A stretch of DNA of 64,000 nucleotides from Candidatus Eiseniibacteriota bacterium (GCA_043779525.1 JAYWED010000008.1:24881-88880); one strand, 5' to 3'. Shown: positions 40,020 through 56,100, counted from the first letter of the stretch. Translations and numbers: made by a program. Notes: generated by a model from the sequence alone, not told the origin.

Positions 40020-40057
40020 GGCGAGCGATTCCAGCAAGCGTTCGCGGAGGACAAACG

Positions 40058-41281
40058 TTGCGCATCGGAACACCGCTCACTCCCAGCGCCACGAGAGTCA
40101 TGCTGCTCGGCGCGGGAGAGCTGGGCAAGGAGGTCATCATCGCGCTGCAGCGCTTCGGCGTCGAGGTGATCGCCGTGGACCGGTACGCCCACGCCCCGGG
40201 ACACCACGTGGCTCACCGGTTCCACGTGATCGACATGACGGACCCCAAGGCCCTCCGCGCGATCGTCGAAGCGGAACGGCCGCATCTCGTGGTGCCGGAG
40301 ATCGAGGCGATCGCGACCGACGAGCTGGCCCGGATCGAAGCGGACGGGCTGGCGCGGGTGATCCCCACGGCGCGCGCCACCCAGCTCACCATGAATCGCG
40401 AGGGCATCCGCCGGCTTGTCGCCGAGGAACTCAAGCTCCCCACTTCCAAGTACGCCTTCGCGGAGACCTCCGAGGAGGCCCTTCGCGCCGCTCAGACGCT
40501 CGGCTTCCCCTGCGTGATGAAGCCGGTCATGTCCTCGTCGGGCAAGGGACAGTCCGTGCTGCGCAGCCCGGACGACGTCGCGAAGGCCTGGGATTACGCC
40601 ATGAGCGCGGGACGCGTGAAGAACGCGCGCGTGATCGTCGAGGAATGGATCGCGTTCGATTACGAGATCACGCTCTTGACCGTGCGCTCCCGTGGCGAGC
40701 ACGGAAAGAGCGAGACTAACTTCTGCGCTCCGATCGGACACGTCCAGGTGAACGGGGATTACGTCGAGAGCTGGCAGCCGCAGCCCATGACCGGGCGCGC
40801 GCTCACGCGATCCAGGGAGATCGCGAAACGGATCACCGACAATCTCGGCGGAAGCGGCATCTTCGGGGTCGAGCTCTTCGTGCAGGGAGACCGCGTCTGG
40901 TTCAGCGAGGTGAGCCCGCGGCCCCACGACACCGGCATGGTCACGATGATCACGCAGGCACAGAGCGAGTTCGAGCTTCACGCGAGAGCGATCCTGGATC
41001 TACCTGTGAATACGTCGCTTCGAACGCCAGGCGCGAGCGCCGTCATTTACGGTGGCACGAACGCGAAAGGGATCGCCTACGAGGGGCTCGACGAGGCCCT
41101 CCGCCTTCCAGACGTCGAGGTGCGCCTCTTCGGAAAGCCCGAAGCGTTCCCGAAGCGGCGGATGGGTGTGGCGCTGGCTCACGGGCGCGACTTCGGCGAG
41201 GCGCGGCAGCGCGCCAAGCTCTGCGCGTCCCTGGTGAGGCCGGTCAGCCCGGCGGCCGTTCCCGACGCGTCGATCCCATGA
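40058..41281 (+). CDS. purT: formate-dependent phosphoribosylglycinamide formyltransferase (PurT, GAR transformylase 2)
   Basis: (M)[25 protein letters not shown]...ATP-grasp...[20 protein letters not shown]...FGVELFV...[13 protein letters not shown] is colinear with E. coli PurT. The TTG start is chosen by the homologous N-terminus. The frame is open upstream. Confidence 0.85.
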
Positions 41282-42769: not shown

Positions 42770-43666
42770 TTGGGAATTCTCTTCGGTGTCCTCGCAGCGG
42801 CGTTCTGGGGCGTCGGCGATTTCTTCATCACGCTTCTGACTCGGCGCATCGGGACGCGATGGGCGCTTCTCTCGATCCAGGCGCTCAGCCTCGCTGCCTG
42901 GTTCGTCCTTCTTCTAGGCGGGGCCAAGCCGGCCGCGGTGACCGCGCCGCTCTGGGGCATCCTCTTCGCGACGGGCGTCTGCCACGTCCTCGGCCTCGCC
43001 CTGGTCTACCGCGCCTTCGAGATCGGAAACCTCGCCATCGTCTCTCCGATCTCCTCGGCATTCGCCATCGTCACCGCGATTCTCTCGCTCGTGTCCGGGG
43101 AGCGTCCCCCCGCGCTCGTTCTCGCCGGTTCGCTCCTTCTGATGGCGGGCGTCGCGCTCGCCACGCGCGCACCGTCTTCGAGCCCCGCTTCGACGACATC
43201 CCTCCGCGGAGTCCCGGAAGCTCTCGCCAGCGCGGTCGCGTTCGGAACCATGTTCTGGCTGTTCTATTTCTACATCCAGCCCAAGCTCGGCTACGCGCTC
43301 CCGCTCGTATCGCTCAAGACGCTGGCGGTGTGCGGCTCAGCCCTGGCGTTCGTCCGACCGGGCCGTGGAGAAGGGTGCGGAACGCTCGAGGCGGCCAAGG
43401 CGGAAGCGGCGATGGCGGCTCCGGCGATGGCGGCTCCGATGGTCGTGCTCCTGGCGATCGCCGCCGCCACGGCCGATACGGCGGCGTGGCTGGCCTACAT
43501 CCAGGGAACGCACACGGCATACGCCACCGTGGTCACGGCGCTTGCCTCGCTATTCAGCGCGGTCACGGTCTTGCTCGCATGGCGGTTCTTCCGGGAGCGG
43601 CTCGCGGTCCATCAATGGATCGGCATCGGAGTGATTCTGGCGGGGATTCTTCTCGTCAATATCTAG
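42770..43666 (+). CDS. EamA/DMT-superfamily transporter
   Basis: Ten hydrophobic segments, duplicated EamA half-domains, N-terminal ...AAFWGVGDFFITLL.... Confidence 0.75.
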   Translation: MGILFGVLAAAFWGVGDFFITLLTRRIGTRWALLSIQALSLAAWFVLLLGGAKPAAVTAPLWGILFATGVCHVLGLALVYRAFEIGNLAIVSPISSAFAIVTAILSLVSGERPPALVLAGSLLLMAGVALATRAPSSSPASTTSLRGVPEALASAVAFGTMFWLFYFYIQPKLGYALPLVSLKTLAVCGSALAFVRPGRGEGCGTLEAAKAEAAMAAPAMAAPMVVLLAIAAATADTAAWLAYIQGTHTAYATVVTALASLFSAVTVLLAWRFFRERLAVHQWIGIGVILAGILLVNI

Positions 43667-43668
43667 AC

Positions 43669-45444
43669 TCAGGCCGCGTTCCGGCCGAGCGCGGCGCCGC
43701 CGGCGGGCTTCCCGCTCTCGGGAGCGTGTACCCGGGGTAGGAGCACCGTGAACCTCGCGCCTCTTCCCTGGCCCTCGCTCTCCGCCTGAATGCTCCCTCC
43801 GTGGGCGATTGCGATCGCGTTCGCCTTCGCGAGGTTGAGCGCCGACCCGGACCGGTGGTGCAGGGAGTCGGCGATGGTGAATGGCTTGAGAATCTCTTCT
43901 GCAAGCTCCGGCGCGAACCCTGCCCCGGTGTCCTCGACACAGAGGCGGACTTCCTCGGCCGATGCCTCGCACCGTATCGAAACGTGGACCCCCTCGGGCG
44001 AGAACCGGACCGCGTTGTCGAGGAGGATGCGGACGACTTCGGTCAGGTCCGCCGGGCTGCCGCGAACGAGGCACGGCTCGGCCGGGAGGATGATGTTCAC
44101 ACGAGCCTCGGCGTCCGCGAGCCCCGGAACCTGTTCCCGCGCCGCATCCACCAAGGTCGCGACCGCGGACACCTCCTCGGAACGCGCCGGCTCTCCGACG
44201 ATCCAGGCTCGGTACGTGAGGGCCGTCTCGATGAAGCGCTTCAGGCGGTCGTAGCCGTTTCGCAGCACCTTCACGATCTCGATCTGGTCCGGCCGCCCCC
44301 CGCTGTCCAGGAACTCGATCGCGGAGAGGACGGTCAGCGGGGTGCGTAGCTCGTGGGAGACGAAGGTCAGGAAGTCGTCCTTCATGCGGTCGAGCATGCG
44401 CAGGCGCTCGTTCGCCGCGGCAAGCTGGAGCGCCTGCGCGCTGGACTCCTGATAGGCGCGCGCCAGCTCGGCGCTCTGCAGTCTGTTGTAGATCGCGATC
44501 GAGGCGGTGTCGGCGATGTAGGCCAGGATCTCCTCGTCGCGCTCCTCGAAGGGGAGTCCGCTCGTCCGGTCGCCCACCACCAGAATGCCCAGGACCTGGC
44601 TGCTAGCCAGGAGCGTCGCGCGCAGGAATGGAGCGACGGGAAGCAAGTCGCGGACGCCCAGGGGGGCCCGCGCAAGGATGGGAGCGTCTTCCAGGGACCG
44701 GGCGAGGATCGTGCGCAGATCGCAGAGCCTCTCCATGTCGCTTCCCTGCACCGCCGCGCGCGCGGCCTTGGAGGCGTCTCCGCAGGCGCCCTGCAGGACC
44801 ATTGCTCCTTCCTCGAACAGCCATACCGAGGCGTGACTGCAGACGAATGTCTCGCGGGCGAACTGAGCGACCTGGTCCAGCGTGACCGGCAGGGCGGTGA
44901 GGGCGTTCAAGGTATCGGAGAACCGGTACAGGTCCCCGATGACGCGGCGCTGGGAATCGATCGTGCGCTGCATCCAGAACCGCTGGAGAAGATGGACGAT
45001 GCTGACCGTGAAGTCGTGCTCGTTGTCCACCGGCTTAGTCAGATACTTGTCCAGGAGCCGGTCGTTGATGGCGGTGATGGCCGACTCCAGGCCGGCGTGT
45101 CCCGTCAGGAGCACGCGGATCGTTTCCGGGTGGCTCTCGCGAACCCGGGCCAGGAACGCGGTCCCTTTCATCTGAGGCATCTGCTGGTCGCTGACGACCA
45201 TGGCGACGATTCCGCCGTCCGCCACGATCTCTTCCAGCGACTCGAGCGCGTCCTGCGGGTTCGTGAAGAAGAGAAAGCGGTATGCGGGGCCCGAGGGGGC
45301 GTTTTCCTGGACGCGCCCCGGCAGAAATAGCTCGAGCGATTTCACGAACTCGGCGTCGTCGTCCACGCAGACGACGAAGCATTCCTGCCCTGCGCCGGCC
45401 ACGGCCGCGCCTTCGGGCTGGCTCTTCCCGGGGAGCTGGGTCAC
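43669..45444 (-). CDS. hybrid signalling protein: N-terminal receiver (REC) + GAF + HisKA + HATPase_c
   Basis: REC ...VVCVDDDAEFVKSL...MVVSDQQMPQMKG.... Central GAF. H-box DDFLTFVSHELRTPLT. ATPase ...LLDNAVRFSPEG...DTGAGF.... Confidence 0.8.
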   Translation of the reverse strand: MTQLPGKSQPEGAAVAGAGQECFVVCVDDDAEFVKSLELFLPGRVQENAPSGPAYRFLFFTNPQDALESLEEIVADGGIVAMVVSDQQMPQMKGTAFLARVRESHPETIRVLLTGHAGLESAITAINDRLLDKYLTKPVDNEHDFTVSIVHLLQRFWMQRTIDSQRRVIGDLYRFSDTLNALTALPVTLDQVAQFARETFVCSHASVWLFEEGAMVLQGACGDASKAARAAVQGSDMERLCDLRTILARSLEDAPILARAPLGVRDLLPVAPFLRATLLASSQVLGILVVGDRTSGLPFEERDEEILAYIADTASIAIYNRLQSAELARAYQESSAQALQLAAANERLRMLDRMKDDFLTFVSHELRTPLTVLSAIEFLDSGGRPDQIEIVKVLRNGYDRLKRFIETALTYRAWIVGEPARSEEVSAVATLVDAAREQVPGLADAEARVNIILPAEPCLVRGSPADLTEVVRILLDNAVRFSPEGVHVSIRCEASAEEVRLCVEDTGAGFAPELAEEILKPFTIADSLHHRSGSALNLAKANAIAIAHGGSIQAESEGQGRGARFTVLLPRVHAPESGKPAGGAALGRNAA

Positions 45445-47348
45445 GCCGCACGCTCCGGATGAGCCGACCCGCCCGAGTCGCTTTCGGGAGACCCGTGCGC
45501 GCCGGGGCCGCGGTCACCGTCGTCCGATGGAACTTGCTTAAGCCCCGCAACGCGGAGCGTGATCTCGAACGTCGTCGTCCCTGGACGACTCACCACCGAC
45601 ACCGTCCCCCCCAGCTTCGTCACGATCCCGGAGACGATGGAGAGCCCGAGCCCCGTTCCCTTGCCGATGTCCTTGGTCGTGTAGAAGGGATCGAATACCT
45701 TCTGCAGCTTGTCCTCCGGAATGCCCACCCCGTTATCCGTGATGGCGACGTGGATCTGGTCGCCCGACCGGCGCGTGGTGATCTCGATCATGCCTTGGTG
45801 GTCCGGTCCCATCTCCTCGACGGCGTCGCACGCGTTCGTGAGCAGGTTGGTCCAGATCTGGTTCAGCTCTCCCGTCCCCAGGACCGGGGGAAGATCGGGC
45901 GCCAGGTTGGCGCGCACGGCCACCTTGTTCTTCAAGTGGTTCCGGAGGAGCACCAGAGCGATCTGGATCGACTCGTTGATCTGGATCGCCTCGATGCGGT
46001 CGGCGTCGGAGCGGGCGTAGTACTTGAGCGCCCTCACGATCTCCGCGATCTTCTGGGAGCTGGTCTCCGCGATCGCGATGCCCTGGGCGATGCTGCCGTA
46101 GGCGTCCGCGAGTTTCAAGAACGAGGCGTCCCCGACACAGGCAAGGTGCTCCCTTAGCTGTTCGGGCTCCGTGAAGCGGATCCGCGCCAAGACGACCGCA
46201 CGCTGCCTGGCGTCACCGATTCCATGCTCGATCAGGAGCTGCTCCACCCGCTTCGCGTCGCGGTACGAGGACACATCGCCGGTCTTGGTGTTGGCGGTCC
46301 GGAGATCCTCCAGGCAGGCCGCCATCGCGCCCGGAGGAATCTCGCCGCGCCAGAACGGGACCAGGGACTGCGGCAGCGCCGCGAGCATCCGGGCCAGGTT
46401 CCGCGACACGTTCAGGATCGCCCCGACGGGCGTGTTGATCTCGTGGGCCACGCCCGCGATCAGAATCCCGAGCGAGGCCATCTTCTCGCTCAGGACGAGG
46501 TGGCTCTGTGTGTTCTTGAGGTCCTCGTAAGTCTTCTGCAGCGCCGCCGTCTTTTCGCGAACCATGTTCTCGAGGTGGCGGTTGTACTCGTCGAGTTCGT
46601 GTCGCGAGCGTTTCAGATCCGCCGACATGCGGTTCAGGGCCGCGGCCAGCTCGGCGATCTCGTCGGAGGGATGGACGGGAAGGTCGACATCGTAGTCGCC
46701 CTTCGCAATGCGGTGCGTCGCCTGGATCAGCCGCGTCAACCGGGCAAGAATCACATGGCGTATGAGCACGTAGAGCGCGAGGCAGACGATGATCGTTTTC
46801 AAAACCTGGAGCGCGATGATGCTTCGATCCACCTTGGCGATCGTCGCGGTGATGTCGTCGAAGGAGATCTCGATGACCGCGGCGCCCGTGATCTTGGATC
46901 CGCGGAGAATCGGCGAAACCGACCGAATCCCGAGAGCGTGCTTGTCTTCCGTCATGATCCGCGTGCTCGGCTTGGCGGCTCGCAGGGCGTCGAGCACGTC
47001 CGCTTGTGGAATCCTGGGGCCGATCCGGGACGGATCGGAGTCCGCCACGTCACGCGGCGTGGGGTCGTAGAACGCGATCCGACGGATATTCCGGTAGTAG
47101 GTCATGTACTTGGCGATGACGTCCTGGGTCGTGCTCTCTTTGCTGGGATCCACGTCGTACTTCACGTCGTGGACGAAGGAAGCAGCCAGGATCTCGACCG
47201 TGCTCAGCTTCTGGCTGACCACGTAGTCGTAGACGATCCGGCGAACGACCATGGTGGCGGCGGCATTGGCGATGATGAGGGTCCCCGCCACCATGAGGAG
47301 CACCTTCGCCCGGATGGAGAGAGGCGGGATCCGGCGAATGCCCATCAC
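45441..47348 (-). CDS. membrane sensor histidine kinase (extracytoplasmic sensor + HAMP + HisKA + HATPase_c)
   Basis: Two TM segments flanking a roughly 170-aa periplasmic domain. HAMP ...IAKGDYDVDLPVHPSDEIAELAAALNRMSADL. H-box LGILIAGVAHEINTP. ATPase ...NLLTNACDA...DNGVGIP...GTGLGLSIV. 4-bp overlaps with both neighbouring genes. Confidence 0.85.
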   Translation of the reverse strand: MMGIRRIPPLSIRAKVLLMVAGTLIIANAAATMVVRRIVYDYVVSQKLSTVEILAASFVHDVKYDVDPSKESTTQDVIAKYMTYYRNIRRIAFYDPTPRDVADSDPSRIGPRIPQADVLDALRAAKPSTRIMTEDKHALGIRSVSPILRGSKITGAAVIEISFDDITATIAKVDRSIIALQVLKTIIVCLALYVLIRHVILARLTRLIQATHRIAKGDYDVDLPVHPSDEIAELAAALNRMSADLKRSRHELDEYNRHLENMVREKTAALQKTYEDLKNTQSHLVLSEKMASLGILIAGVAHEINTPVGAILNVSRNLARMLAALPQSLVPFWRGEIPPGAMAACLEDLRTANTKTGDVSSYRDAKRVEQLLIEHGIGDARQRAVVLARIRFTEPEQLREHLACVGDASFLKLADAYGSIAQGIAIAETSSQKIAEIVRALKYYARSDADRIEAIQINESIQIALVLLRNHLKNKVAVRANLAPDLPPVLGTGELNQIWTNLLTNACDAVEEMGPDHQGMIEITTRRSGDQIHVAITDNGVGIPEDKLQKVFDPFYTTKDIGKGTGLGLSIVSGIVTKLGGTVSVVSRPGTTTFEITLRVAGLKQVPSDDGDRGPGAHGSPESDSGGSAHPERAA

Positions 47349-48820
47349 ACGTCTACGGGCGATCGAGCCGCCGCGGAGGCGATCTCGTCATAGTGCCCGT
47401 CCAGCTGGTAGCTTTGGCGGTACTTCTGCACCCATGGAGAGACGGGATTGAGACCGCCGGGGGGATATCCGCCCCAGGGCTCGAACATCGATTCGATGGA
47501 AGGGTCCGCGTTCACGCAGATGCGCGGCGCGCGGGACAGGCGCGCGAACTCCCGGATGGAATCCGGCCGCGAGCTCAGGACCGCGTCGCTGAGCGGGAAG
47601 CGATTGGCTCCGAGCCACCGTGGGACATCGGCCCACCGGACGGGCTGGATCCAGATGGCGGGCCCGTAGAGTCCCTCCCGGACCGTCGGATTCTCGGGCC
47701 CCAGGCCCTCGACGACCGCGGGCCGGAAGTAGGCGCCCGTGGCTTCCCCGCCGACCAGCACCCGCGCGCCGTCGGCCGAGAGCATCCGCCTGAGCCCCTG
47801 GGCCTGGCTCTCGCTGAAGAGCGGTCCCACCCGCGTCCCCTCCAGATAGGGATCCCCCGGCGTGAGCGACGCGAAAGAATCGACCAGCGCCCGGCGCAAT
47901 CTCGAATAGAGGGCCTCTTCGACCAGCACGCCGTTGATCGAGGTGCAGGTCTCGCCGTTGAAGCGCGTCGCCGCCTCGGTGATGAGGCGTGTCGCGGTCT
48001 CGAGCGGGTAGGTCTCGTCGATGTAGAGCATCCCGTTCCCCTGCCCGTCGAGGAGGCACAGCTTCCCCGCGGCGAAGGTCTGGTGGAGAGCGGAAGCGGC
48101 GTACCGGTTGCTCCCGATGTAGTGGACCACCTCGACATGCTCGCTCGCGCAGACGGCTTCGAGGAAGGTGCTGGCGAGCGAGTTCACGATGTCCAGACGT
48201 CCTTCCGGCGGATCGCTGGCGGCGACGCACTCCGCGAGGAGAGCGCCCGTGGATGCGGTCTGGAGCGACGGCCGCAGCAGGACGCGGGTGCCGGCATAGA
48301 GGGCGGAGGCCAGGATGGTGATTCCGAGACTCAGGGACGCGTTTTGCGGCACGAGGGCCGCCACGAGACGGTAGGGCCGGCTCGTCAGACGCATACCCCG
48401 GCGGGTGCTGGAAGAGTAGGAGTGGTGAAAGACGGATTCCTGCCGGGGCTGCTCCCCGATAAAGGTCTCGAAGGAGCCCAGGAAGTCGGTCGCCGCGTCC
48501 ACGATCTCTTCGGCGTCGTGGAAAATGAAGCCGGTTTCCGCGACCGTGACCCGGACCAGTTCCGCGCGTCGCTCCTCCAGCTCACCTTTCAACCTCCGAA
48601 AGAAGGCAAACAGCTCCTCGGCCGGCGTGTCACAGGGATGCGCCATCAGCCGGCGCGCCGCCGCGACAATTTCCTCCCTCGTCGCGAGGCGCACCTCGCG
48701 CAGGACCTCGCCCGTCACGGGAGAGATCAGCTCGTGCCGCTGGCCGGAAGACGGGATGGCCGGCCCGGAAGGCGGGATCACCGGTCCGGTGGGGCGCGAC
48801 AAGGGGGCCGCTTCGCTCAT
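47345..48820 (-). CDS. aldehyde-dehydrogenase-superfamily protein, atypical (catalytic Cys region present, canonical ELGG Glu motif not evident)
   Basis: ALDH-like length and a ...FNGETCTSINGVLV... Cys motif, but the ELGGKSP position reads VHYIGSNRY. Possibly a LuxC-like acyl reductase or other divergent member. ATGA overlaps with the solute-binding-protein stop. Confidence 0.6.
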   Translation of the reverse strand: MSEAAPLSRPTGPVIPPSGPAIPSSGQRHELISPVTGEVLREVRLATREEIVAAARRLMAHPCDTPAEELFAFFRRLKGELEERRAELVRVTVAETGFIFHDAEEIVDAATDFLGSFETFIGEQPRQESVFHHSYSSSTRRGMRLTSRPYRLVAALVPQNASLSLGITILASALYAGTRVLLRPSLQTASTGALLAECVAASDPPEGRLDIVNSLASTFLEAVCASEHVEVVHYIGSNRYAASALHQTFAAGKLCLLDGQGNGMLYIDETYPLETATRLITEAATRFNGETCTSINGVLVEEALYSRLRRALVDSFASLTPGDPYLEGTRVGPLFSESQAQGLRRMLSADGARVLVGGEATGAYFRPAVVEGLGPENPTVREGLYGPAIWIQPVRWADVPRWLGANRFPLSDAVLSSRPDSIREFARLSRAPRICVNADPSIESMFEPWGGYPPGGLNPVSPWVQKYRQSYQLDGHYDEIASAAARSPVDV

Positions 48821-49644
48821 AGAACGCCGATCCTTGCTTGATGCTTGTCGAGGATTCCCCACTTCGCGTAGATCGCCTTGAGCTTGCCCTCGCGCTTCAG
48901 AGTCTCGAGAGCGGCATTCACCGCCAGGCGGAGCGATTGATCCTCCTTGCGAAAGGCCGCGACGTACTGGCCTTCGTCGAAGGACTCGCCGACGTTTTTC
49001 AGCTTGGGATTGGAGGCGCCGTAGGCCGCGGCGATGGGGCTGTCGAGGAGAACCGCGTCGACCCGGCTGCTCTGAAGATCGCGATAGCTGTAGATGATCT
49101 CGGGATGGGTTACCACCTTGATACCGGAGGTCCGGCGCAGGATGTCCTCCGCAGCGGTTCCCGAGAGCGTTGCCACGGTCTTCCCCTTGAGGTCGCCCAG
49201 ACCGCTGACCCCCGATGTTCCTTCCCTCACCGTGAGCTGCTGCGAATAGACGAAATAGGGGGTGGAGAAGGCCACGATGGCGGCGCGGTCAGGGGTGTCC
49301 TCAATGCCGTTCATGGCCATGTCGAACGAGCCCTTCTGCAGCTCCGGAATCAGGGTGTCCCATGCGCGGATCGCGAGCCTGGACTTCACACCAAGCTGGG
49401 CCGCGACCTCGCGGGCGATGTCCACCTCGAAGCCGATGTAGGTCCCCGGATGCTTGGGATCCTCGAAGGCGTAGGGAATCCCGCCGATGACGTCCGCTCC
49501 CCATACCAGGACGCCGGCCTTCTTCACCCGCTCCAGCGAGGGATCCTCCGCGTGCTTCGCTCCGCCCCCCGAATGACCGGATCCGCAACCCGCCGCCCCG
49601 ACGAGCACGGCGGCCGTGAACCATGTGACAAGGATTCGTTTCAT
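48817..49644 (-). CDS. ABC-type polar amino-acid substrate-binding lipoprotein (SBP_bac_3 family)
   Basis: Lipobox VGAAGCGSG. ...GVLVWGADVIGGIPYAF..., ...FDMAMNGIEDTPDR... and ...GKTVATLSGTAAE... match family-3 SBPs. Confidence 0.85.
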   Translation of the reverse strand: MKRILVTWFTAAVLVGAAGCGSGHSGGGAKHAEDPSLERVKKAGVLVWGADVIGGIPYAFEDPKHPGTYIGFEVDIAREVAAQLGVKSRLAIRAWDTLIPELQKGSFDMAMNGIEDTPDRAAIVAFSTPYFVYSQQLTVREGTSGVSGLGDLKGKTVATLSGTAAEDILRRTSGIKVVTHPEIIYSYRDLQSSRVDAVLLDSPIAAAYGASNPKLKNVGESFDEGQYVAAFRKEDQSLRLAVNAALETLKREGKLKAIYAKWGILDKHQARIGVL

Positions 49645-51110
49645 GGCATTCCTCCATCTTGAATGGTCTGTGTCGCAGACGTGGCGGCGGCCCCGTTCAG
49701 ACGCAGCGCGAGGATGGACTCCGTGAGTCGCAGGTACTCCAGCGGGGCTGAAGCGAGCAACCCCGCGGCGCTGGGTCCCTGAGGTTGGCGGAACAGGCTC
49801 CGGAGACCGCGATAGGCCTCACGGCTGTGCGGATTCCGGAGCATGAACGAGCGGATCAAGTCCGAGTCTCCGGTCCCGGGCGAATGGTCCCCGCGCAAGG
49901 AGACGGCGTAGGCGACGAGATCGCGAATGGCGCGGGCCGTCTCCGCGTCGAGAGACCCCACCGCGGCAACATCTGGATAGCGGAGCTCGTGGTCGCGGTC
50001 GTAGAAATATCGGGCGAAGCGGAGTCCGTGCGCCACCAACGCGGGATCGTCGAGACCGGACGCCCCCGCCACGCGCCCCGTTCCCCCTTCGCGGCCGTAC
50101 CCGCCGCGAAGCGCCCGGCGTGGAAGCTCCCGGCGGACGTAGTCCACGTAGCTCATCCCCGCGATCACGTTTGTCTTCTGGCAGAAATTCTCGATGTAGT
50201 CCTTCGTCACGTGCAGATCGCGGCGGATCCCGGTGACGAGAAGCTTCTTGAGCAGGGCCGGCGGCAGGATCTCGAGCAGGCGGTAGGAGACGTCCCGATC
50301 GAGCTGGACCTGCCCGTAGGTCACCGACACCGGGATTCGTCCACCGAAGAATTCGCGCGAGATGAACTTCGACACGCCCAGAGTGCCCCGGTCCGCGACG
50401 TGGGCTTTGGAGAACACCTCGAGATCGACCCCGTAGAGGTTCCAGCGCGCTGCGCAATCCAGCTTCCAGCTCAGCTTCCCTTTGATCTCGGAGATCTCGG
50501 CGCCCCTCGCGTGGCCGCACCGCTCGCAGTCGAAACGTATCGTTCCACCCTCGATCGACTGGATTCGCGTCGCGTCGACGCAGAAGCAGCTCGGGCACTG
50601 GGGCCTGAAGAGGCTGCGGATCGTAAAATCCTGGAACTGGCCGGCGAGCGCGTTCTGGATCTCGTGATGATTCTCGAAGGTCGTGCGGAGGAACGGAGCG
50701 TAGTGCCCTCGCCTGTAGGCCTGGTAGGTATCGATGAAGATAGGATGGATGTCGAGCATGTGGAGACGCGTCTTCAGCGACGCGGCAAAGTGCTCCGAGT
50801 AGCTCTCGTGGCACTCGTACGGATCGGGAATCTCAGCTATGGGGCGGCCGCAGAAGGGACGAAAACGCTCCAGGAGCGCCGCGTCCTTTTGAACCCCGAT
50901 CCGGAGCTGAGCCTCGGTCAGCGCGTCGTAGCTGTCGTTGATCAGGATGAGCACCGCGGTGCGCCCGCGTCCGGTGACCCGCTCGCGCATGTGATCACCG
51001 ACGACGAACTCGCGCAGTGTGCGCTCATCGCCCAGAAGCGACGTGGTGAATCCCGTCGCGACGACGTAGGGGACGAGCGGCTTGAGGCCGTCCATGGCGG
51101 TCCTTGGCAT
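49641..51110 (-). CDS. class-I lysyl-tRNA-synthetase (LysK/tRNA-synt_1f)-like paralogue with degenerate HIGH and KMSKS motifs
   Basis: Colinear with archaeal-type LysRS-I: DPYECHESYSEHF versus DPWGCHESYAEHF, Zn knuckle QCPSCFC...FDCERCGH, and WKLDCAARWNLYGVDLEVFSKAH versus [23 protein letters not shown]. The HIGH position reads LGDE and no KMSKS-like loop is present. Confidence 0.65.
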   Translation of the reverse strand: MPRTAMDGLKPLVPYVVATGFTTSLLGDERTLREFVVGDHMRERVTGRGRTAVLILINDSYDALTEAQLRIGVQKDAALLERFRPFCGRPIAEIPDPYECHESYSEHFAASLKTRLHMLDIHPIFIDTYQAYRRGHYAPFLRTTFENHHEIQNALAGQFQDFTIRSLFRPQCPSCFCVDATRIQSIEGGTIRFDCERCGHARGAEISEIKGKLSWKLDCAARWNLYGVDLEVFSKAHVADRGTLGVSKFISREFFGGRIPVSVTYGQVQLDRDVSYRLLEILPPALLKKLLVTGIRRDLHVTKDYIENFCQKTNVIAGMSYVDYVRRELPRRALRGGYGREGGTGRVAGASGLDDPALVAHGLRFARYFYDRDHELRYPDVAAVGSLDAETARAIRDLVAYAVSLRGDHSPGTGDSDLIRSFMLRNPHSREAYRGLRSLFRQPQGPSAAGLLASAPLEYLRLTESILALRLNGAAATSATQTIQDGGMP

Positions 51111-51120
51111 GCGCGCTGAG

Positions 51121-51909
51121 CTAGAAGTCCCGGGCCACCTGGAAGGAGAAGAGCCACGCGCTCTTCACCGCGTTCGCGTCGCGGAAATCGCCGTTCTGCC
51201 ACGTGACGAAGCGCGAGACGGACGGCGTGACGGTCGTGTGGTGGAATGACTTCTCCACGTGCGCGTTCCATTCGCTCGCCGGGAAGCCGGAGAGGTCGTA
51301 GTAGTGATCCTGATAGAAGAGATTCGCGCCGAGGGAGAGCGTCCCGAAGGGTCTCTCGAAGCCGTGGCTCAGACCGAACGTCGAGTACGTTCCCTTTCCG
51401 GCGTCGAAGTCGTAATGGACGCTCAGGGAGGGGTTCAGGACACCGTCGCGCGAGGTCTCCAGATACAGCTCCTGGGAGGGATCCCAGCCGTCGCGATGCG
51501 GATACCAGAGATAGGTGTATCCGGTCGTGAACGAGAACTTCTTGGCTTTCCACTCGTGGAGAACCGAGAAATCGAACTCGTTCGAGACGCCCAGGTCCAG
51601 GTCGTGATTCACCCAGAGCTTGGCGGAGATCGGCCCAGCGCTCAGATCCGCCTCGGGGTTCAGCACGGGTTTTCCGTTGCTGTAGTCGACCCCCTGAAAG
51701 AGGTAGCGCGTCGCGAAGGACATGCTCCCGCTCGCGGCAAAGGGAGACGAGGGCTGGTCTGTTGTCTCTCTGGAAGTCCCGGGCACGGGAGCGGAGCCCG
51801 GAGAGGACGCCGGATCCGGAACCGTGGACGGCGTCGCGGACGAAACCCCCGCTTGGAACACGAAAAAGGCGAGACAGAGAGCGGGATACACCAAGGCATG
51901 ACGGTTCAC
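51121..51909 (-). CDS. putative outer-membrane beta-barrel protein
   Basis: Signal peptide. Alternating aromatic/hydrophilic beta-strand pattern. C-terminal ...FSFQVARDF ends in Phe. It is the first gene of the minus-strand operon and ends 10 bp before the LysRS-like gene. Confidence 0.5.
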   Translation of the reverse strand: MNRHALVYPALCLAFFVFQAGVSSATPSTVPDPASSPGSAPVPGTSRETTDQPSSPFAASGSMSFATRYLFQGVDYSNGKPVLNPEADLSAGPISAKLWVNHDLDLGVSNEFDFSVLHEWKAKKFSFTTGYTYLWYPHRDGWDPSQELYLETSRDGVLNPSLSVHYDFDAGKGTYSTFGLSHGFERPFGTLSLGANLFYQDHYYDLSGFPASEWNAHVEKSFHHTTVTPSVSRFVTWQNGDFRDANAVKSAWLFSFQVARDF

Positions 51910-52225
51910 GGCACCCTCCTCAGACGGCGTGTCCGATACATCGCGATCCGATGCTAATAAACGGATATATCGGCTCTTGGGGGCGTTACCTTGAAGGGGA
52001 TGCTGCGCTGCGGGGATCGCGGGACGCGTCGCCTGGCATGGCGCTCAGATCGAGCTTTTACAATTACTTAGAGCGTATTGATGATGTTCCCTGTGAGCGA
52101 CGCCGGGCCACTCTATGGTCCACGCGAATTCTCAGGCATGAGGGCTCACGATCGGATACCCTCCGCGTCCAGGTCAGCCGGACCGCACATTACCCCCAGG
52201 AGCGCACCGAGGAGGAATCGTCACC

Positions 52226-53167
52226 ATGAGCCTGCCACTGTCCAGCTTACGCAATCCGCACCCATGCCGGATCCATACCGCCGCAGGTCTTGCTTTTCTT
52301 GTTTCTTTTCTCGTCCCCGCAATGGCCTTCTCGGCCCCCAAGGGGAAGGCCGAAGTAGTCCCGAAGGCCAAGCTCGTTGGTCTCTCCGAAGTCGGCCTTC
52401 CGCGGTACGCGCCCCCCGCGGCCTACCGCGAGGATCTCGTCATCAAGAGCAAGAACGGCGACATGACGATGCGGCGTTTCGTGGACCACGGAAAGATCCG
52501 GACCGAGATGAGCGCGCAAGGACACGAATTCATCATGATCGAGTCCGGCGACTCCAAGGGGACGATGTACACCCTGATGCCCGAGCAGAAGATGGCGATG
52601 AAGCAATCCCGTCCCCAGACGGCGGACGCCGAGCCCGAGTCCAAGGCGCCGAAGCAGGAAAAGGCGGGCGCGAGCCCGGCCCCTCCGGATGCCCAGGTCG
52701 AGGATCTGGGCGACGACACGATCGAAGGCACCGCGGTCAAGAAGCTGCGGATGGTCTATGGCGGGGGCGACGTGCTCGGCTGGTTCGACAAGACGACCGG
52801 TGGCCCGGTCCGGATGGAAAGCCTGGTCGACGGCGAGAAGGCGACCCTCGAATGGAAGAACCGGAAAGCGGAGCCTCAGTCCGCCCAGCTGTTCGAGATC
52901 CCGAAGGGTTACGACGTCAAGGACATGGATGAGATGCGGAAGCAGATGGGAGCCATGGGCGGCATGGGAGCCATGGGAGGCGTCGGCGGGATGGCGAAGG
53001 GCATGGCAGGAGGAATGGTGCAGGGCATGGGATCGAACATGGGCAGCTCACTCGGAGGAATGATCGGCGGCTCGCTGGGCGGACCGCTGGGTTCGGCCGC
53101 GGGTCAGTTCCTGGGCGGCAAGATCGGCGGGATGCTCGGCAAGAAGGCCGCGAACGCGATCAACTGA
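52226..53167 (+). CDS. hypothetical exported protein with a Gly/Met-rich C-terminal low-complexity tail
   Basis: Signal peptide. A beta-rich body resembling the DUF4412/LolA-like fold. C-terminal (GMGAMGG)n repeats. Confidence 0.5.
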   Translation: MSLPLSSLRNPHPCRIHTAAGLAFLVSFLVPAMAFSAPKGKAEVVPKAKLVGLSEVGLPRYAPPAAYREDLVIKSKNGDMTMRRFVDHGKIRTEMSAQGHEFIMIESGDSKGTMYTLMPEQKMAMKQSRPQTADAEPESKAPKQEKAGASPAPPDAQVEDLGDDTIEGTAVKKLRMVYGGGDVLGWFDKTTGGPVRMESLVDGEKATLEWKNRKAEPQSAQLFEIPKGYDVKDMDEMRKQMGAMGGMGAMGGVGGMAKGMAGGMVQGMGSNMGSSLGGMIGGSLGGPLGSAAGQFLGGKIGGMLGKKAANAIN

Positions 53168-53172
53168 CGGAG

Positions 53173-56100
53173 CTAATCCGCGCGGGAAGCCGAATGCCCC
53201 CCGCCGAATCCGGTGAGCAGGGACGGCAGAACGATCAGGAGCAGAAACGCCGACGTGACGAATCCGCCCACCACGGCGATCGCGAGAGGTTTCAAGAGCG
53301 CGCTTCCCGCCCCGACCCCGAGCGCCAGGGGCGCGAGCGCCGCCACGCCGGCGAACGTCGTCATGAGGACGGGCCGCGCGCGCCTCAGGGCCGCCTCGCG
53401 CGCGGCCTCCGCGACGGAAGCGCCGCGATGGAGCGCGGCTCGGTGCGCCGCGACGAGGAAGTAGGCGTTTTCCGAGACGATTCCCACCATCATGATCGCC
53501 CCCACGAAGCTCGAGATGTTGAACGTGGCTCTGCCCAGGTGGAGCGCCGCGAACACTCCCGCGAGCGAGGAAAGGACGACGAGGAGCACCGCGGCGGACT
53601 GGCGCCACGATTTGAAGGAGAAGAGAAGGATCGCGCTCACCAGCGCGACGGCGCCCATCAGCACGGCCGCGAGCCCCCGAAACGAGGACTGCTGCTCCGC
53701 CCACATTCCCGCGTATTGAAGGGTCGCATCCGGCGGAAGCACCACCCGCGCGCGAACCCGCTTCTGGATTTCCGCCATGGCCGAGCCCAGATCGCGGCCG
53801 GAGAGGCGCGCCGTCGGAGCCACCATCGTGCGCAGATTGTCCCGCCCGATCTCGGTCACGCCGGGGAGGGTCTGGATCGAGGCGACGTCGCCCAGTCGCA
53901 CGCGCCCTGAGCCCACGGGCACCTGAACGCCGGAAATCACCTCGGCGCCGCCCAGCCCGGAGGGCCGCGCCATCACGAAGCGGACGGGCCAGGCGCGGGC
54001 TCCGCGCGCGATCATTCCCACGTCCGTTCCCCCGATCGCGGGCGCCACGTCCTGCGCCAGATCCTCAGCGCTCTTCCCGGACCGCGCGGCCGCGGCCCTG
54101 GGGACGATTATGACGTTCGGACCGCTCACGACGACGCCGTCCTTCACGTCCACGACCCCGGGAACGCCCGTGAGGACCGCCGCCACCTCGCGCGCCTTGT
54201 CCTCCGCCAGAGCCTTGTCCTCATCGAAGATCCTCACCTCGATCGGCTGGGGTGTCGTGGTCAGGTCGCCGATGACGTCCTCCACCAGCTGACCGAATTC
54301 CACCTTCAGCGCCGGCTGCGTCTTCTCGATCCTGCCTCGAAGGTCGTCCGCGATCTCGTCCGCGCCTCGCCGGTGCTTGGCCCGGAGGCGCAGCACGTAG
54401 TCGCCGATGTTGGGCTCGGTGGCGAAGAAGCCCAGCTGATCGCCGGTGCGCCGCGACCACGCGACGATCTCCGGCATCGCGGCGATCTCCTTCTCCACCT
54501 CCCGCAGCATGCGGTCGGTCTCCTCGAGGGACGTGCCCGCGGGCGAGATGTAATCCAGGATCAGCGAGCCCTCGTCCATTTCGGGCAGGAACCCGCTTCC
54601 GAGGGTGAGGTAGAGCGGGATCGCGATCAGGATGCACGCGCCGACCGCGGCGAGGCCGATCCAGCGGGTCTCCGTCGCGCGGTGCAGAGCTTTCGTGAAC
54701 CGGGTTGAGCCTCGCTTCGCTCCGGGCCGGGCGTGATGCGCCGAGGGGCTCGTGAGGGGCACGAGCGTGAGGCACAGGAGCAGCGAGGCGCCGAGCATGA
54801 GCGCCATGGAAAGCGTGAGCACCCGAAAGAAGGCGCCCGTGACCCCGCCCAGAAGCACGAACGGGAGGAAGATCGCGAGCGAGCAGAGGCTGGAGCCCAC
54901 GAGGGTCGGCAGGATCTCGGCCATCGCCTGGGAGCGCGTCGCGGGATGCTCCCCCGTCGAGCGGGCGGCCAGGTGCTCCACCACCACGATGCCATCGTCG
55001 AGGACGAGCCCCACCGCGGCCGCGATCCCGCCGAGCGTCATCATGTTGAGCGACTGGCCCGAGAGATGGAGCCCGATCAGGGTCAGCGCGATGCTCGCCG
55101 GGAGGACCGCGGCTCCCGCGAGCCCGAGACGGCGGCTCTTGAGGACGATCATGATCACGAGCACCGCCAGCACCGCGCCCACGATCAGGCTGTCGCGCAC
55201 GCTGCCGATCGAGGCGCGCACCAGATCGGACTGGTCGTAAAAGGTCTGGATCCTTACTCCGCGTGGAAGCCGGCTCCGGTTCTCCTGGAACCACCGGTGC
55301 GCCGCGACGGAGAGCGTGATGGCGCTGGCCGAACGCTGACGGAGGAGATTGACCAGCACCGCCTCGCGCGAATCCGCCCGGTAGCGCTTGAATTCGGGCG
55401 CCTCCTCGAGCGCGATCCGACCGAGCTGCCCCAGGCGCACCGGGGGGCCGGAAGCCGCCGGGATGGTGAGGGAATCGAGGGAACTCAGGTCGCGCGGCCT
55501 CCCGTCCACCAGCGCCAGGTAGAGCTGCGAGTTCGCTTCCAGAAGGCCGACCGACTCGAGCGTGGACGCCTTCCGGACCGCATCCACGACCGCGGCCGCG
55601 TCCAGCCCGCGCGATTCCAGGGCGGCCGGATCGAGCGTGACGCGCGCCTCGAGCTTTCGCCCTCCCTGGTTCACGACCTCGGCGACGCCCGGCAGCCTGG
55701 AGAGCTCCGGGAGCAGCACCATGTCGGCGAAGTCCCGCAGTTCGGCCAGCGAGGTTTGGTCGGAGGTGAGCGAGAATCCGACCACCGGGAAGAGGGTCGG
55801 ATTCATGAGGCGCACGTCCACCACGGTGCCCTGCGGAAGCCGGGTCCGGATGGCATCGATCTGCGCCTGGATCCGCTGCACCGTCAGGTCGATGCTCGAT
55901 CCCCACTCGGAGTCCAGGTTGATCTCGGCGGACCCGCGGCTCGTCGTGGATCGGATCTCGAGGATTCCCGGCACGCGCCGGATCGACTTCTCGAGCGGAC
56001 GGGTCACCTCCCGGAGAACGACCTCGCTCGGAAGCTCGCCGGAATCCGCGATGACCTTGACCCGAGGGAACGTGACCTCGGGGAGGATCGAGGTCGGCAT

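Follow-up and report, generated by a model that had tools for sequence, protein, structure and literature searches.

The 64,000-nucleotide stretch of Candidatus Eiseniibacteriota bacterium DNA that we analyzed (GCA_043779525.1 JAYWED010000008.1:24881-88880; hereafter, the window) carries a copy of a gene cassette that is conserved and horizontally mobile; its core is a pair of genes, one for a class I lysyl-tRNA synthetase (LysRS) paralog that has lost its ATP-signature motifs and the other for a member of the ALDH superfamily. The cassette was found at about 56 loci in several phyla, and it is a real, widely conserved, and apparently undescribed element of bacteria. Our search of the literature turned up no account of a LysRS-like/ALDH cassette and no matching system, in keeping with the initial annotation of this DNA, which had not recognized the combination of genes.

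Six minus-strand genes make up the operon (Table 1), and all six open reading frames were found where the initial annotation had placed them. So was the coupling it had claimed, by ATGA or GTGA overlaps and a gap of no more than 10 nucleotides: the junction between the genes for the β-barrel and the LysRS-like protein reads TAG, 10 nucleotides, ATG, and the other four junctions are 4-bp overlaps, of ATGA at 49641-49644 and 48817-48820 and of GTGA at 47345-47348 and 45441-45444. The LysRS-like protein possibly starts at Met6 (51095), as in the public gene call. The domain identities proposed for the six products agree with matches to Pfam and TIGRFAM profiles, in the case of the barrel through sub-threshold matches only. 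A seventh conserved gene, overlooked earlier, encodes an EamA transporter and adjoins the 3' end of the operon.

Table 1. Coordinates of the cassette genes and of selected codons, numbered from the first nucleotide of the window
Feature	Position	Strand	Remarks
Probable outer-membrane β-barrel (TorF/Gcw_chp-like)	51121..51909	-	First gene of the operon; optional among relatives
Class I LysRS paralog ("LysK-like," 489 aa)	49641..51110	-	Without ATP-signature motifs
HIGH-equivalent tetrad D28-E29-R30-T31	51018..51029	-	From alignment and hhalign; codons checked
KMSKS-equivalent remnant D273-V274-S275	50286..50294	-	Loop about 10 residues shorter
Four-Cys zinc knuckle C172, C175, C195, C198	50517..50597	-	Kept from LysRS-I
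Orphan family-3 solute-binding lipoprotein (SBP)	48817..49644	-	SBP_bac_3
Distinct ALDH subfamily member	47345..48820	-	Aldedh
ALDH catalytic Cys292 codon, motif NG[EQ]TCTS[IV]NG	47945..47947	-	From ortholog alignment
ALDH Asp258 codon, at the general-base Glu position	48047..48049	-	ELGG replaced by LxDGxGN
Transmembrane HAMP histidine kinase	45441..47348	-	Pfam
REC-GAF-HisKA-HATPase protein	43669..45444	-	Pfam
EamA/DMT transporter	42770..43666	+	PF00892; convergent with the 3' end of the operon, 2-nt gap

Gene-neighborhood searches showed the cluster to be strongly conserved in relatives. More than 20 loci of what we call Type A (from Eisenbacteria, Krumholzibacteriia, Nitrospirota, and Gammaproteobacteria), spanning at least four phyla, share an identical order of genes, which excludes chance assembly. 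Type B loci come from Abditibacteriota, Armatimonadota, and Chloroflexales, and clade C is an AT-rich uncultured clade. Across three clades that have diverged deeply, 22 of the 23 well-flanked loci pair the LysRS-like gene with an ALDH gene, making the ALDH the obligate partner of the LysRS-like protein. Exceptions are two loci (L033 and L017) in which no ALDH gene lies near the LysRS-like gene and one (L059) with genes for an SBP, an ALDH-like protein, and a histidine kinase (HK) and none for a LysRS-like protein. The sensor, meanwhile, is swappable, being an SBP, a HAMP-HK, and a REC-containing protein in Type A and a multi-TM-GAF-GGDEF-HD-GYP protein in Type B. The SBP and the two kinases belong to the unit in the window, as had been proposed, but are not an invariant part of it. 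Type B carries in addition a gene for an amine N-methyltransferase (119.5 bits against NCBIfam GntF; cutoff, 60), and the role of GntF has been described (PMC10673588). In clade C the ALDH is fused to, or followed by, a Zn-ADH, and a nucleotidyltransferase and an MBL hydrolase are also neighbors. No dedicated tRNA gene was found to accompany the cassette, no further conserved catabolic enzymes were found around it, and it contains no DNA-binding response regulator, its outputs being kinases or c-di-GMP enzymes. Nor did the cassette resemble an anti-phage defense system: the LysRS-like protein, the ALDH-like protein, and the barrel had no matches in PADLOC-DB, where only the generic nucleotidyltransferase and MBL domains of clade C neighbors gave matches, all of them weak.

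Judging from its sequence and modeled fold, the LysRS-like protein is a homolog of class I LysRS (LysRS-I) along its whole length. Its match to PF01921 (2.5e-46, 158.7 bits) covers only profile positions 23-279 of 360, and Pfam detected no Anticodon_2 domain in it, whereas canonical enzymes match positions 1-359 at 300-408 bits and Anticodon_2 as well. Comparison with canonical LysRS-I by hhalign gave a probability of 100% (E 8.7e-55) over residues 11-461, the C-terminal domain included, and the best Foldseek match of the AF2 model (pLDDT 87) was 1irx (E 1.5e-21, TM 0.60, 515 columns). The motifs that had been quoted as remains of the LysRS-I scaffold, DPYECHESYSEHF, a four-Cys knuckle, and WKLDCAARW...GVD...SKAH, are all present. 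In a joint alignment about 21 of 32 near-invariant LysRS-I positions are kept, the losses falling mainly in HIGH, GxDH, and KMSKS. The knuckle cysteines are invariant across paralogs and canonical enzymes alike, and the paralogs also keep the DPxxCHxSY block, GKLxW...RW, E.F.K.H, the Tyr preceding the KMSKS loop, and a C-terminal "GP" motif. Retained too are W215 and H237, the counterparts of canonical W220 and H242, which we take to line the lysine pocket. GKDH has become SKxH, and an invariant Trp is replaced by Cys219, a conserved residue and possible acyl acceptor that is Val, Leu, or Ser in some distant paralogs. The median pI is 8.1 for the paralogs versus 6.3 for canonical LysRS-I.

Both ATP signatures are gone throughout the family. 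The tetrad H-I-G-N of HIGH aligns with DERT, a register with which hhalign agrees; the canonical His (100%) corresponds to Asp (100%) in the paralogs and the canonical Gly (100%) to Arg (100%), and Asp28 and similar replacements are unvarying even among the remotest paralogs. The earlier reading of this position as LGDE was right about the loss of HIGH and two residues off in locating it. The loss of KMSKS was also borne out: family-wide, the loop is cut to (D/E)(V/L)S, about 10 residues shorter, with E/D and L/V standing where canonical enzymes have K (100%) and M (100%), and Ser alone retained. All 123 family members examined carry other residues in place of the His of HIGH and the Lys and Met of KMSKS. 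These substitutions count against the view that the protein is simply the class I lysyl-tRNA synthetase of the organism, with coincidental neighbors. PF01921 is its sole Pfam match; JGI and one GenBank record call homologs "lysyl-tRNA synthetase class I" or "lysine--tRNA ligase"; and no other LysRS was found within the 64-kb window, which is uninformative. Yet its score against TIGR00467 is 133 bits, below the equivalog cutoff of 147.55, its PF01921 score is far from the canonical range, members of the family are rare, forming 46 clusters at E ≤ 1e-30 in a set of 1.84 billion representatives, and the neighborhood is kept across phyla. Moreover, a bona fide class II LysRS, the kind of co-occurrence that had been named as support for a paralog, is encoded 3 kb from one divergent family member (L062, clade C). 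A housekeeping role is thus extremely improbable, and the original view of the protein as a paralog rather than the canonical enzyme holds.

The ALDH matches Aldedh (PF00171) at 8.8e-57 and 193 bits (gathering score, 23). Its AF2 model (pLDDT 85) has the standard three-domain ALDH fold, with a TM of about 0.8 to aminoaldehyde, BADH, and GapN-type enzymes, and its closest fold neighbors, omega-aminoaldehyde and betaine-aldehyde dehydrogenases and ALDH7A1 among them, are ordinary hydrolytic ALDHs. The catalytic Cys (equivalent to Cys302) is present in all 38 orthologs with a residue at that position and aligns with the catalytic Cys of ALDHs in the PDB; the oxyanion-hole Asn (Asn169 equivalent) is present in 33 of 39 sequences. 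The general-base Glu (Glu268 equivalent) is Asp in 39 of 39, opposite the Glu of 9jw2 in a pairwise alignment, and at the cofactor-ribose ligand positions of Types A and B Lys192 is invariantly Arg and Glu399 invariantly Gly. The invariance of K192R, E268D, and E399G together with that of the Cys indicates specialization, not decay. The initial annotation was correct that the ELGG Glu is missing, but the degeneracy it implied is contradicted by the invariant Cys. Clade C ALDHs keep K192/E268/E399/C302, the full hydrolytic set. The match to LuxC (PF05893) is borderline, covering part of the profile at 22.1 bits where the gathering score is 21 (range, 22-29 bits), and no LuxE homolog was found in any locus neighborhood examined.

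The remaining genes encode sensory and envelope proteins. The SBP matches SBP_bac_3 at 2.4e-33 and has the lipobox AAGC, and its nearest relatives in the PDB are Gln/Arg-binding proteins. Among 20 orthologs there is almost no variation in the pocket segments NGIE-T-(D/E)R, TLSGTAAEDIL, and VDAVxLD, and the pocket presumably keeps the Arg/Asp/SGT elements that bind an α-amino acid in GlnBP and LAOBP, with an extra invariant Glu. No ABC permease or ATPase genes lie near the SBP gene in any of the locus neighborhood tables, and the protein is likely to be a periplasmic co-sensor, orphan of any ABC transporter. The HAMP kinase matches HAMP, part of HisKA (residues 294-320), and HATPase_c (residues 495-600); its periplasmic domain measures about 140 aa, and its H-box (AHEINTP) is separated from the ATPase domain by an insert that, at about 170 aa, is unusually long. 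Its orthologs come after the ALDH gene in 22 loci. The REC-GAF-HisKA-HATPase protein is its presumed phospho-acceptor; this slot is always filled in Type A by a REC-containing protein, with an output that varies among HK, GGDEF-EAL, and HATPase only. An SBP, a transmembrane kinase with H-box and ATPase, and a REC partner, without ABC genes, constitute the gene layout of a two-component system with an orphan SBP. The barrel has a signal peptide, a C-terminal Phe, and weak, sub-threshold matches to PF09694 (Gcw_chp, E 4e-4) and TIGR02001 (TorF, E 4e-5); at 13 loci an ortholog immediately precedes the LysRS-like gene, and at L060 a JGI gene call also flags Gcw_chp. The outer-membrane barrels of the cassette come from three unrelated families, Gcw_chp-like, "c9," and AlgE-like. 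The EamA protein matches PF00892 at 2.1e-16, and orthologs (127-505 bits) adjoin the LysRS-like/ALDH pair in 24 of 56 LysK-like loci, the window included, and are found in the architectures of both Type A and Type B. EamA is present in about half of well-flanked loci and a barrel in fewer.

The gene set of the cassette suggests a novel pathway by which a small molecule resembling lysine is made or sensed, and the proposal of the initial annotation, that a lysine-like amino acid is sensed or modified, is plausible. Our favored interpretation, which we hold only tentatively, is that the two proteins together make up an enzyme that works without ATP on a lysine-like compound, which is also transported and sensed. 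In this scheme the amino-acid moiety, whether free or attached to tRNA, would be bound by the LysRS-like subunit, and the ALDH would perform a thioester or aldehyde redox step, giving a lysine-like amino acid, aldehyde, or amine. EamA would carry the product over the inner membrane and the barrel over the outer membrane, and the orphan SBP would read its periplasmic level and signal to the HAMP kinase and from there to the REC-GAF kinase, the multi-TM GGDEF/HD-GYP protein being the reader in other lineages. The whole would form a self-contained circuit in which a metabolite is produced or processed and then sensed. That the two proteins pair physically, what substrate they act on, which way redox chemistry and transport run, and that signals pass from SBP through kinase to REC are all things we infer.

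Several observations favor an enzyme. That the core occurs elsewhere with a GGDEF/HD-GYP protein or with no sensor at all moves weight from a pure ligand-binding sensor to a small-molecule enzyme pair: in clade C the pairing is kept among enzymes without signaling genes, and the enzymes, transporter, and barrel persist while the sensor is exchanged. The loss of motifs looks surgical, near-invariant positions being otherwise mostly kept, and the GntF-like N-methyltransferase of Type B, the full-length homology, the invariant ALDH Cys, and the conserved SBP pocket would all fit catalysis. On the other hand, a LysRS-like protein without HIGH and KMSKS may have no catalytic role, and the near-constant signaling neighbors in Types A and B also fit a sensor. 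EamA and the barrel are patchy, three loci depart from the pairing, Cys219 varies, and the cassette lacks a dedicated tRNA gene.

A serious rival, though on balance we think it rather unlikely, is that the LysRS-like protein, with or without the ALDH-like protein, has no catalytic function and serves in the cytoplasm as a receptor for lysine, an analog, or charged or uncharged tRNA. With HisZ, which regulates HisG, and the HisRS-like domain of GCN2 as precedents, this pseudo-enzyme would bind to the HAMP kinase, or else to the GGDEF/HD-GYP protein, and tune its output, with the SBP reporting the periplasmic level of the same ligand. A receptor could dispense with both ATP signatures while keeping pocket-type residues and the C-terminal domain, and could use the long HAMP-kinase insert as a docking site. 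A signaling protein is near in 21 of 23 well-flanked loci, and in the window the two genes are interleaved and translationally coupled with those for the SBP and kinases. A natural LysRS-like::EAL fusion (P0072) is also easier to reconcile with a sensor domain than with an enzyme, but it is a single sequence on one 9.4-kb contig. Against a receptor stand the three clade C loci (L062, L063, and L064) in which the pair has purely enzymatic surroundings and no signaling gene, the catalytic Cys and Asn retained by the ALDH, and the EamA protein, outer-membrane barrels, and GntF-like methyltransferase, which a receptor leaves unexplained. Alternatively, the operon might sense and consume an external lysine-like compound (an amino aldehyde, a diamine, or a modified basic amino acid) that enters via the barrel, is detected by the SBP and kinase, is imported by EamA, and undergoes oxidation or detoxification by the ALDH, for which the LysRS-like protein would be a substrate-binding or specificity subunit. 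The amino-acid-type pocket of the orphan SBP, the aldehyde dehydrogenases among the ALDH fold neighbors, and the complete catalytic set of the clade C ALDHs suit such a role, and EamA/DMT proteins can act as importers. We nevertheless judge it unlikely: there is no DNA-binding response regulator to induce catabolic genes, the enzymes share the operon of the sensor rather than being controlled by it, an N-methyltransferase like GntF is typical of biosynthesis and not of catabolism, and other catabolic enzymes are not conserved.

The cassette resembles several known systems in part. With class I LysRS (LysK; PF01921/TIGR00467; 1IRX) the LysRS-like protein shares full-length homology, fold, zinc knuckle, and several motif blocks; it differs in having DERT for HIGH, (D/E)(V/L)S for KMSKS, SKxH for GKDH, Cys219 for Trp, and a sub-cutoff score, and in its non-translational operon and rare, patchy distribution. 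HisZ-HisG and the HisRS-like domain of GCN2 are likewise aminoacyl-tRNA synthetase scaffolds without aminoacylation motifs and tied to a partner, here by genomic association with an enzyme and with kinases. By analogy with such inactive regulators, the LysRS-like protein probably still binds its cognate amino acid or tRNA. Here, in contrast, the scaffold is that of class I LysRS, the partner is an ALDH, and the regulatory role is putative; we know of no earlier report of a class I LysRS scaffold in such a role. The pairing of an ALDH-superfamily Cys enzyme with a separate protein of acyl-activating lineage recalls LuxE/LuxC and the carboxylate reductases, but here a LuxE or adenylation-domain homolog is lacking, the "activating" partner has no ATP motifs, and the fold neighbors are hydrolytic ALDHs. 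The ALDH-ADH fusion of clade C suggests consecutive redox steps. As in LuxP-LuxQ and TorT-TorS, an SBP without an ABC transporter is encoded beside a transmembrane kinase, followed by a REC-containing partner. Unlike those systems, the SBP is of the family-3 amino-acid type, two enzyme-like cytoplasmic genes are interleaved, and a DNA-binding regulator is absent.

Finally, cyclodipeptide synthases (CDPSs) are synthetase-like enzymes that work with already charged tRNA or without adenylation. As in the LysRS-like protein, HIGH and KMSKS are missing from their class I Rossmann domain, and glutamyl-tRNA reductase has, like the partner here, a nucleophilic Cys and a nicotinamide cofactor, with which the ALDH could in principle reduce an aminoacyl ester via a thioester. 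Neither is homologous to the present proteins, for which tRNA use is hypothetical, and in contrast to CDPSs the LysRS-like protein keeps a homolog of the C-terminal anticodon domain. As a decidedly long shot, the LysRS-like protein might capture ready-made Lys-tRNA(Lys) or a related aminoacyl-tRNA and pass the aminoacyl group to the ALDH Cys for NAD(P)H-dependent reduction, as in glutamyl-tRNA reductase. This would yield an amino aldehyde or amine derived from lysine, which some lineages would N-methylate; EamA and the barrel would export it, and the SBP and kinase, or the GGDEF/HD-GYP protein, would read it back. If this were so, the cassette would represent a new tRNA-dependent class of bacterial signaling-molecule synthase with its own receptor.

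The LysRS-like protein retains the complete scaffold of a class I lysyl-tRNA synthetase (LysRS-I) but carries substitutions targeted to its ATP-handling residues, as judged from motif, profile, model and score comparisons. A profile alignment (hhalign) against 27 canonical LysRS-I proteins matched residues 11-461 with a probability of 100% and an E value of 8.7e-55, a span that takes in the C-terminal domain, which is anticodon-binding in true LysRS-I. The top structural match of an AF2 model of the protein (pLDDT 87, pTM 0.81) was P. horikoshii LysRS-I (E 1.5e-21, TM 0.60 over 515 columns), with CysRS and GluRS trailing far behind. Canonical LysRS-I proteins score 300-408 bits over the whole PF01921 profile and also match Anticodon_2; the LysRS-like protein reaches 133 with TIGR00467, below the cutoff of 147.55. 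The paralogues are also more basic than the canonical enzymes (median pI 8.1 versus 6.3).

Motifs were compared in an alignment of 32 family members and in a joint set of 81 paralogues and 18 canonical enzymes. In the joint alignment, the canonical S-G-x-x-H-I-G-N reads A-x-L-G-D-E-R-T, and the His and Gly of HIGH are replaced by Asp and Arg, respectively, in 100% of members. The initial annotation was therefore correct that HIGH is lost but not in reading the tetrad as LGDE, the aligned tetrad being DERT (residues 28-31), of which Asp28 is kept even in the most distant paralogues. The absence of KMSKS, also claimed there, was borne out: K-M-S aligns with (E/D)-(L/V)-S, and the loop falls about 10 residues short of its canonical length. 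The alignments further show SKxH for the canonical GKDH and Cys219 in place of a Trp that is invariant in LysRS-I. The replacements at ATP-handling residues are themselves invariant in the family. Of 32 positions that are near-invariant in canonical enzymes, about 21 survive, among them D59, D62, the DPxxCHxSY block, Y132, the four zinc Cys residues, K212, W215, W223, E231, K235, H237, Y265, S275 and the C-terminal G-P motif. The canonical counterparts of W215 and H237 are W220 and H242, which we take to flank the lysine side chain in LysRS1.

A homologue search yielded 169 full-length relatives (42-100% identity), and just 46 clusters at E<=1e-30 emerged when 1.84 billion cluster representatives were scanned exhaustively; the family is thus rare. 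The next matches beyond it are paralogue clades of greater divergence, followed by canonical LysRS-I at about 1e-28 to 1e-15. Motifs, scores, rarity and context together effectively exclude the possibility that the protein is a housekeeping LysRS. None of the homologue matches was a fusion of LysRS-like protein to ALDH, and the long proteins of 734-779 aa proved to be canonical LysRS-I joined to B3_4 or Metallophos domains. The sole fusion of another kind, homologue P0072, joins the LysRS-like protein to an EAL domain (c-di-GMP phosphodiesterase); it comes from one 9.4-kb contig and sits within an otherwise ordinary locus of the Type A architecture described below.

Positions of the features discussed, in the window or in numbered homologous loci (L)
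Feature	Sequence	Position (strand)	Matches or remarks
Barrel, operon gene 1	Window	51121-51909 (-)	Weak, sub-threshold Gcw_chp/TorF-like match (Pfam/NCBIfam); signal peptide, terminal Phe
LysRS-like protein, operon gene 2	Window	49641-51110 (-)	PF01921 (class I LysRS), profile positions 23-279 of 360 only
Substrate-binding protein (SBP), operon gene 3	Window	48817-49644 (-)	SBP_bac_3; lipobox
ALDH, operon gene 4	Window	47345-48820 (-)	Aldedh
HAMP kinase, operon gene 5	Window	45441-47348 (-)	HAMP, HATPase_c; H-box AHEINTP
REC-GAF kinase, operon gene 6	Window	43669-45444 (-)	REC-GAF-HisKA-HATPase
EamA/DMT gene	Window	42770-43666 (+)	
PurT-like ATP-grasp ORF	Window	39434-41281 (+)	615 aa
ARAGORN 'tRNA-Trp'	Window	45054-45138 (+)	85 nt
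DUF4412 protein	Window	52226-53167 (+)	
AcrB-family RND pump	Window	53173-56196 (-)	
tRNA-Lys(CTT)	L027	11881-11953	
c9	L028	2183-3175	
LysRS-like protein BCM92908.1	L028	8917-10407	
c9	L042	10530-11828	
P0072, LysRS-like::EAL	L057	416-2707	
Variant locus	L059	9222-14497	

All six minus-strand ORFs that the initial annotation had assigned to the operon were found at its coordinates, and the reverse-strand sequence agrees with the coupled junctions it described, four of them being ATGA, ATGA, GTGA and GTGA overlaps; between the barrel and the LysRS-like gene, TAG is followed by 10 nt and then ATG. An in-frame second ATG at 51095 is an alternative start for the LysRS-like gene with a better AAGGA spacer than that of the first ATG, and the public gene call (484 aa) begins there. 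A promoter and terminator scan gave counts no higher or lower than in shuffled sequence, with nothing standing out, and a search for riboswitches and T-boxes across 43000-52700 gave zero Rfam matches at E<=1. The 'tRNA-Trp' called by ARAGORN antisense to the REC-GAF kinase gene is almost certainly a false positive, because Rfam has no tRNA there at E<=1; a comparable call, a 91-nt 'tRNA-Asp', occurs in the ALDH region of L019. Upstream of the operon lie a DUF4412 gene and an RND pump gene, which are not parts of the cassette since they are kept only in the closest relatives (L007, L008 and L019). In the nearby PurT-like ORF recognisable domains begin at about residue 220, reflecting either an N-terminal extension or a mechanical ORF start set too far upstream. 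Convergent with the 3' end of the operon, and 2 nt from it, is an EamA/DMT gene that the initial annotation did not list.

The ALDH partner had been suspected of degeneracy, a view that the comparison of orthologues overturned. Its catalytic Cys (motif NG[EQ]TCTS[IV]NG) is invariant across 38 orthologues, and 33 of 39 sequences keep the oxyanion Asn. The changes that do occur are invariant and subfamily-specific: Arg for the Lys192 equivalent, Asp for the general-base Glu of ELGG (LxDGxGN) and Gly for the Glu399 equivalent. The AF2 model (pLDDT 85) has an ordinary three-domain ALDH fold, about equidistant from aminoaldehyde, betaine-aldehyde, GapN-type and ALDH7A1 enzymes. The subfamily gave 158 matches at E<=1e-30, a list similar in size to that of the LysRS-like protein and drawn largely from the same contigs.

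Context look-ups, together with single scans of GTDB species genomes and of metagenomes, supplied 56 non-redundant LysRS-like loci, the window included, whose ORFs we typed by phmmer and all-against-all clustering. The gene cluster proved to be conserved in relatives, as the initial annotation required of a genuine system, in three architectures (Type A, Type B and clade C). Neighbours were counted at the 23 loci flanked on both sides by 6 kb or more of sequence. ALDH was present at 22 of these (21 by phmmer, plus a fusion in L064 by Pfam) and a signalling protein at 21; EamA orthologues, SBPs and HAMP kinases each occurred at 12, Gcw_chp-like barrels and c9 each at 7, and an N-methyltransferase at 5. 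The LysRS-like protein is thereby tied to ALDH over three deep clades, and in most lineages it lies beside transporters and two-component or c-di-GMP signalling genes. The exceptions are L033 and L017, which have the LysRS-like gene without ALDH, and, outside the 56, L059, which lacks the LysRS-like gene and carries an SBP, an ALDH of the same subfamily (52% identity) and a dCache-HAMP hybrid kinase; HD-GYP and M20 peptidase genes lie near this variant. Counting the window, 24 of the 56 loci have an EamA orthologue (127-505 bits) beside the pair, and both Type A and Type B are represented among them. M20 peptidase and imine-reductase-like neighbours were too sporadic to be counted as cassette parts. 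Membership in a defence system was rejected, PADLOC having returned no matches for the core proteins. No dedicated tRNA gene was found in a scan of 40 loci; the one nearby tRNA-Lys, directly downstream of a Type B cluster in a Chthonomonadales MAG, is probably a coincidence, being the sole case.

Type A, found in Candidatus Eisenbacteria, Krumholzibacteriia, Nitrospirota, Competibacteraceae, Oleiphilaceae and unclassified MAGs, has the order [Gcw_chp-like barrel]–LysRS-like–SBP–ALDH–HAMP kinase–REC-X, where X is HisKA/HATPase, GGDEF-EAL, HATPase alone or a long hybrid kinase; in L060 all seven genes, EamA among them, lie on the same strand. Type B is found in Abditibacteriota (including the cultured Abditibacterium utsteinense and the complete genome AP024152), Armatimonadota and Chloroflexales. 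One strand carries ALDH–EamA–N-methyltransferase and the divergent strand [multi-TM–GAF–GGDEF–HD-GYP]–LysRS-like–c9. At 119.5 against a cutoff of 60, the methyltransferase matches the NCBIfam model of GntF, the amine N-methyltransferase of guanitoxin biosynthesis (PMC10673588). The c9 protein, present in L042, L028 and 15 other Type B loci, is secreted, 330-430 aa long and Gly/aromatic-rich, with a low-complexity Pro/Ala/Thr linker after the signal peptide. It has zero Pfam or NCBIfam matches and is probably an outer-membrane beta-barrel; homology to the barrel of the window was rejected by hhalign (probability 6%).

Clade C comprises AT-rich uncultured organisms, for which the metagenome scan gave just two loci, and its paralogues bear the motif 'GITT[AG]Y..ADNQLRE'. 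The LysRS-like gene is directly coupled to ALDH (by an 8-nt overlap in L062), and a Zn-ADH follows the ALDH or is fused to it (L064). The ALDH retains the canonical Lys, Glu, Glu and Cys. In L062, L063 and L064 the companions are a Pol-beta-type nucleotidyltransferase and an MBL-fold hydrolase, and these loci contain no signalling genes. A class II LysRS elsewhere in the genome had been named as support for a paralogue; L062 has a bona fide one 3 kb from its LysRS-like gene (TIGR00499, 628 bits, cutoff 427.6).

The closest solved relatives of the SBP are Gln/Arg-type binding proteins. At none of the loci do genes for an ABC permease or ATPase lie close to the SBP gene, so this SBP is an orphan with, most likely, a sensory function. 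The pocket segments (GADVxGGxPYxxEDP, NGIE-T-(D/E)R, TLSGTAAEDIL and VDAVxLD) are near-invariant across phyla. From the structures of GlnBP and LAOBP we take the Arg, the SGT turn and the Asp to bind the alpha-carboxylate and alpha-ammonium groups, and the invariant Glu presumably occupies the position of a Thr/Ser in those proteins. This pattern predicts an alpha-amino-acid-type ligand with an extra cationic group, which suggests a possible match to a lysine-like ligand for the LysRS-like pocket. In the HAMP kinase, about 170 residues (roughly 320-490) separate the H-box from the ATPase domain, far more than the usual DHp helix 2, and HisKA is partial in Pfam; orthologues are similar in length (597-638 aa). 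To go by its sequence, the insert could be a putative docking site.

What might the cassette do? Six aspects of its pattern bear on the question: an ancient LysRS-like/ALDH pair; loss of the ATP motifs with the remainder of the synthetase kept, the tRNA-domain homologue included; a Cys-competent ALDH; recurrent inner-membrane transporters, and outer-membrane channels, likewise recurrent, whose families are unrelated; enzymes confined to single lineages, namely an amine methyltransferase and, elsewhere, an ADH; and a sensor that is swappable or absent. The reading we judged most economical for this pattern, and hold tentatively as a real possibility, is that the two proteins would act together, without ATP, as an enzyme on a lysine-like amino compound, that the compound would pass across the envelope and that the cassette's own sensor would gauge its periplasmic level. 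In its boldest form, which would also fit the data, the LysRS-like subunit would offer Lys-tRNA to the ALDH Cys for reduction, a scheme we consider quite improbable.

The main rival, to which we give a rather low probability, is that the LysRS-like protein is a pseudo-enzyme of the HisZ or GCN2 kind, a co-sensor through which the kinase or the c-di-GMP enzymes would register the state of lysine or tRNA. Its motif loss, the adjacent signalling genes and the EAL fusion of P0072 all favour such a role, whereas clade C and the transporter and methyltransferase genes weaken the case for it. An operon that both senses and consumes is likewise conceivable and, in our estimate, unlikely.

Aminoacyl-tRNA synthetase paralogues with non-translational functions include HisZ, PoxA, GluQRS, MshC and the cyclodipeptide synthases, each of which opened new biology; we know of no class I LysRS paralogue with a dedicated role of this kind. 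A full-text literature search returned nothing on the LysRS-like family or the gene combination, and neither NCBIfam nor PADLOC has a model for the family. Repurposed synthetase paralogues and SBP-using kinase sensors are known kinds of system; a class I LysRS paralogue that has an ALDH as its fixed partner and is linked to transport and signalling is not. Database names for the family are 'hypothetical protein' (as in RefSeq for the A. utsteinense orthologue), 'tRNA synthetases class I (K)' and 'lysine--tRNA ligase'. The last is the GenBank name of BCM92908.1, from a complete Abditibacteriota genome, despite the absence of HIGH and KMSKS, and is likely a misannotation; such labels could mask an absent or different true LysRS in metabolic reconstructions.

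Finally, a cultured host, Abditibacterium utsteinense LMG 29911 (proteins WP_106380534.1 and WP_106380536.1), makes the system testable. A sensory LysRS-like protein would be the bacterial equivalent of GCN2-type sensing through a synthetase-like domain. Should the pair prove to be an enzyme, its chemistry may be new and possibly tRNA-dependent, and the poorly studied Eisenbacteria, Abditibacteriota, Armatimonadota and Nitrospirota may harbour signalling metabolites of a new family.
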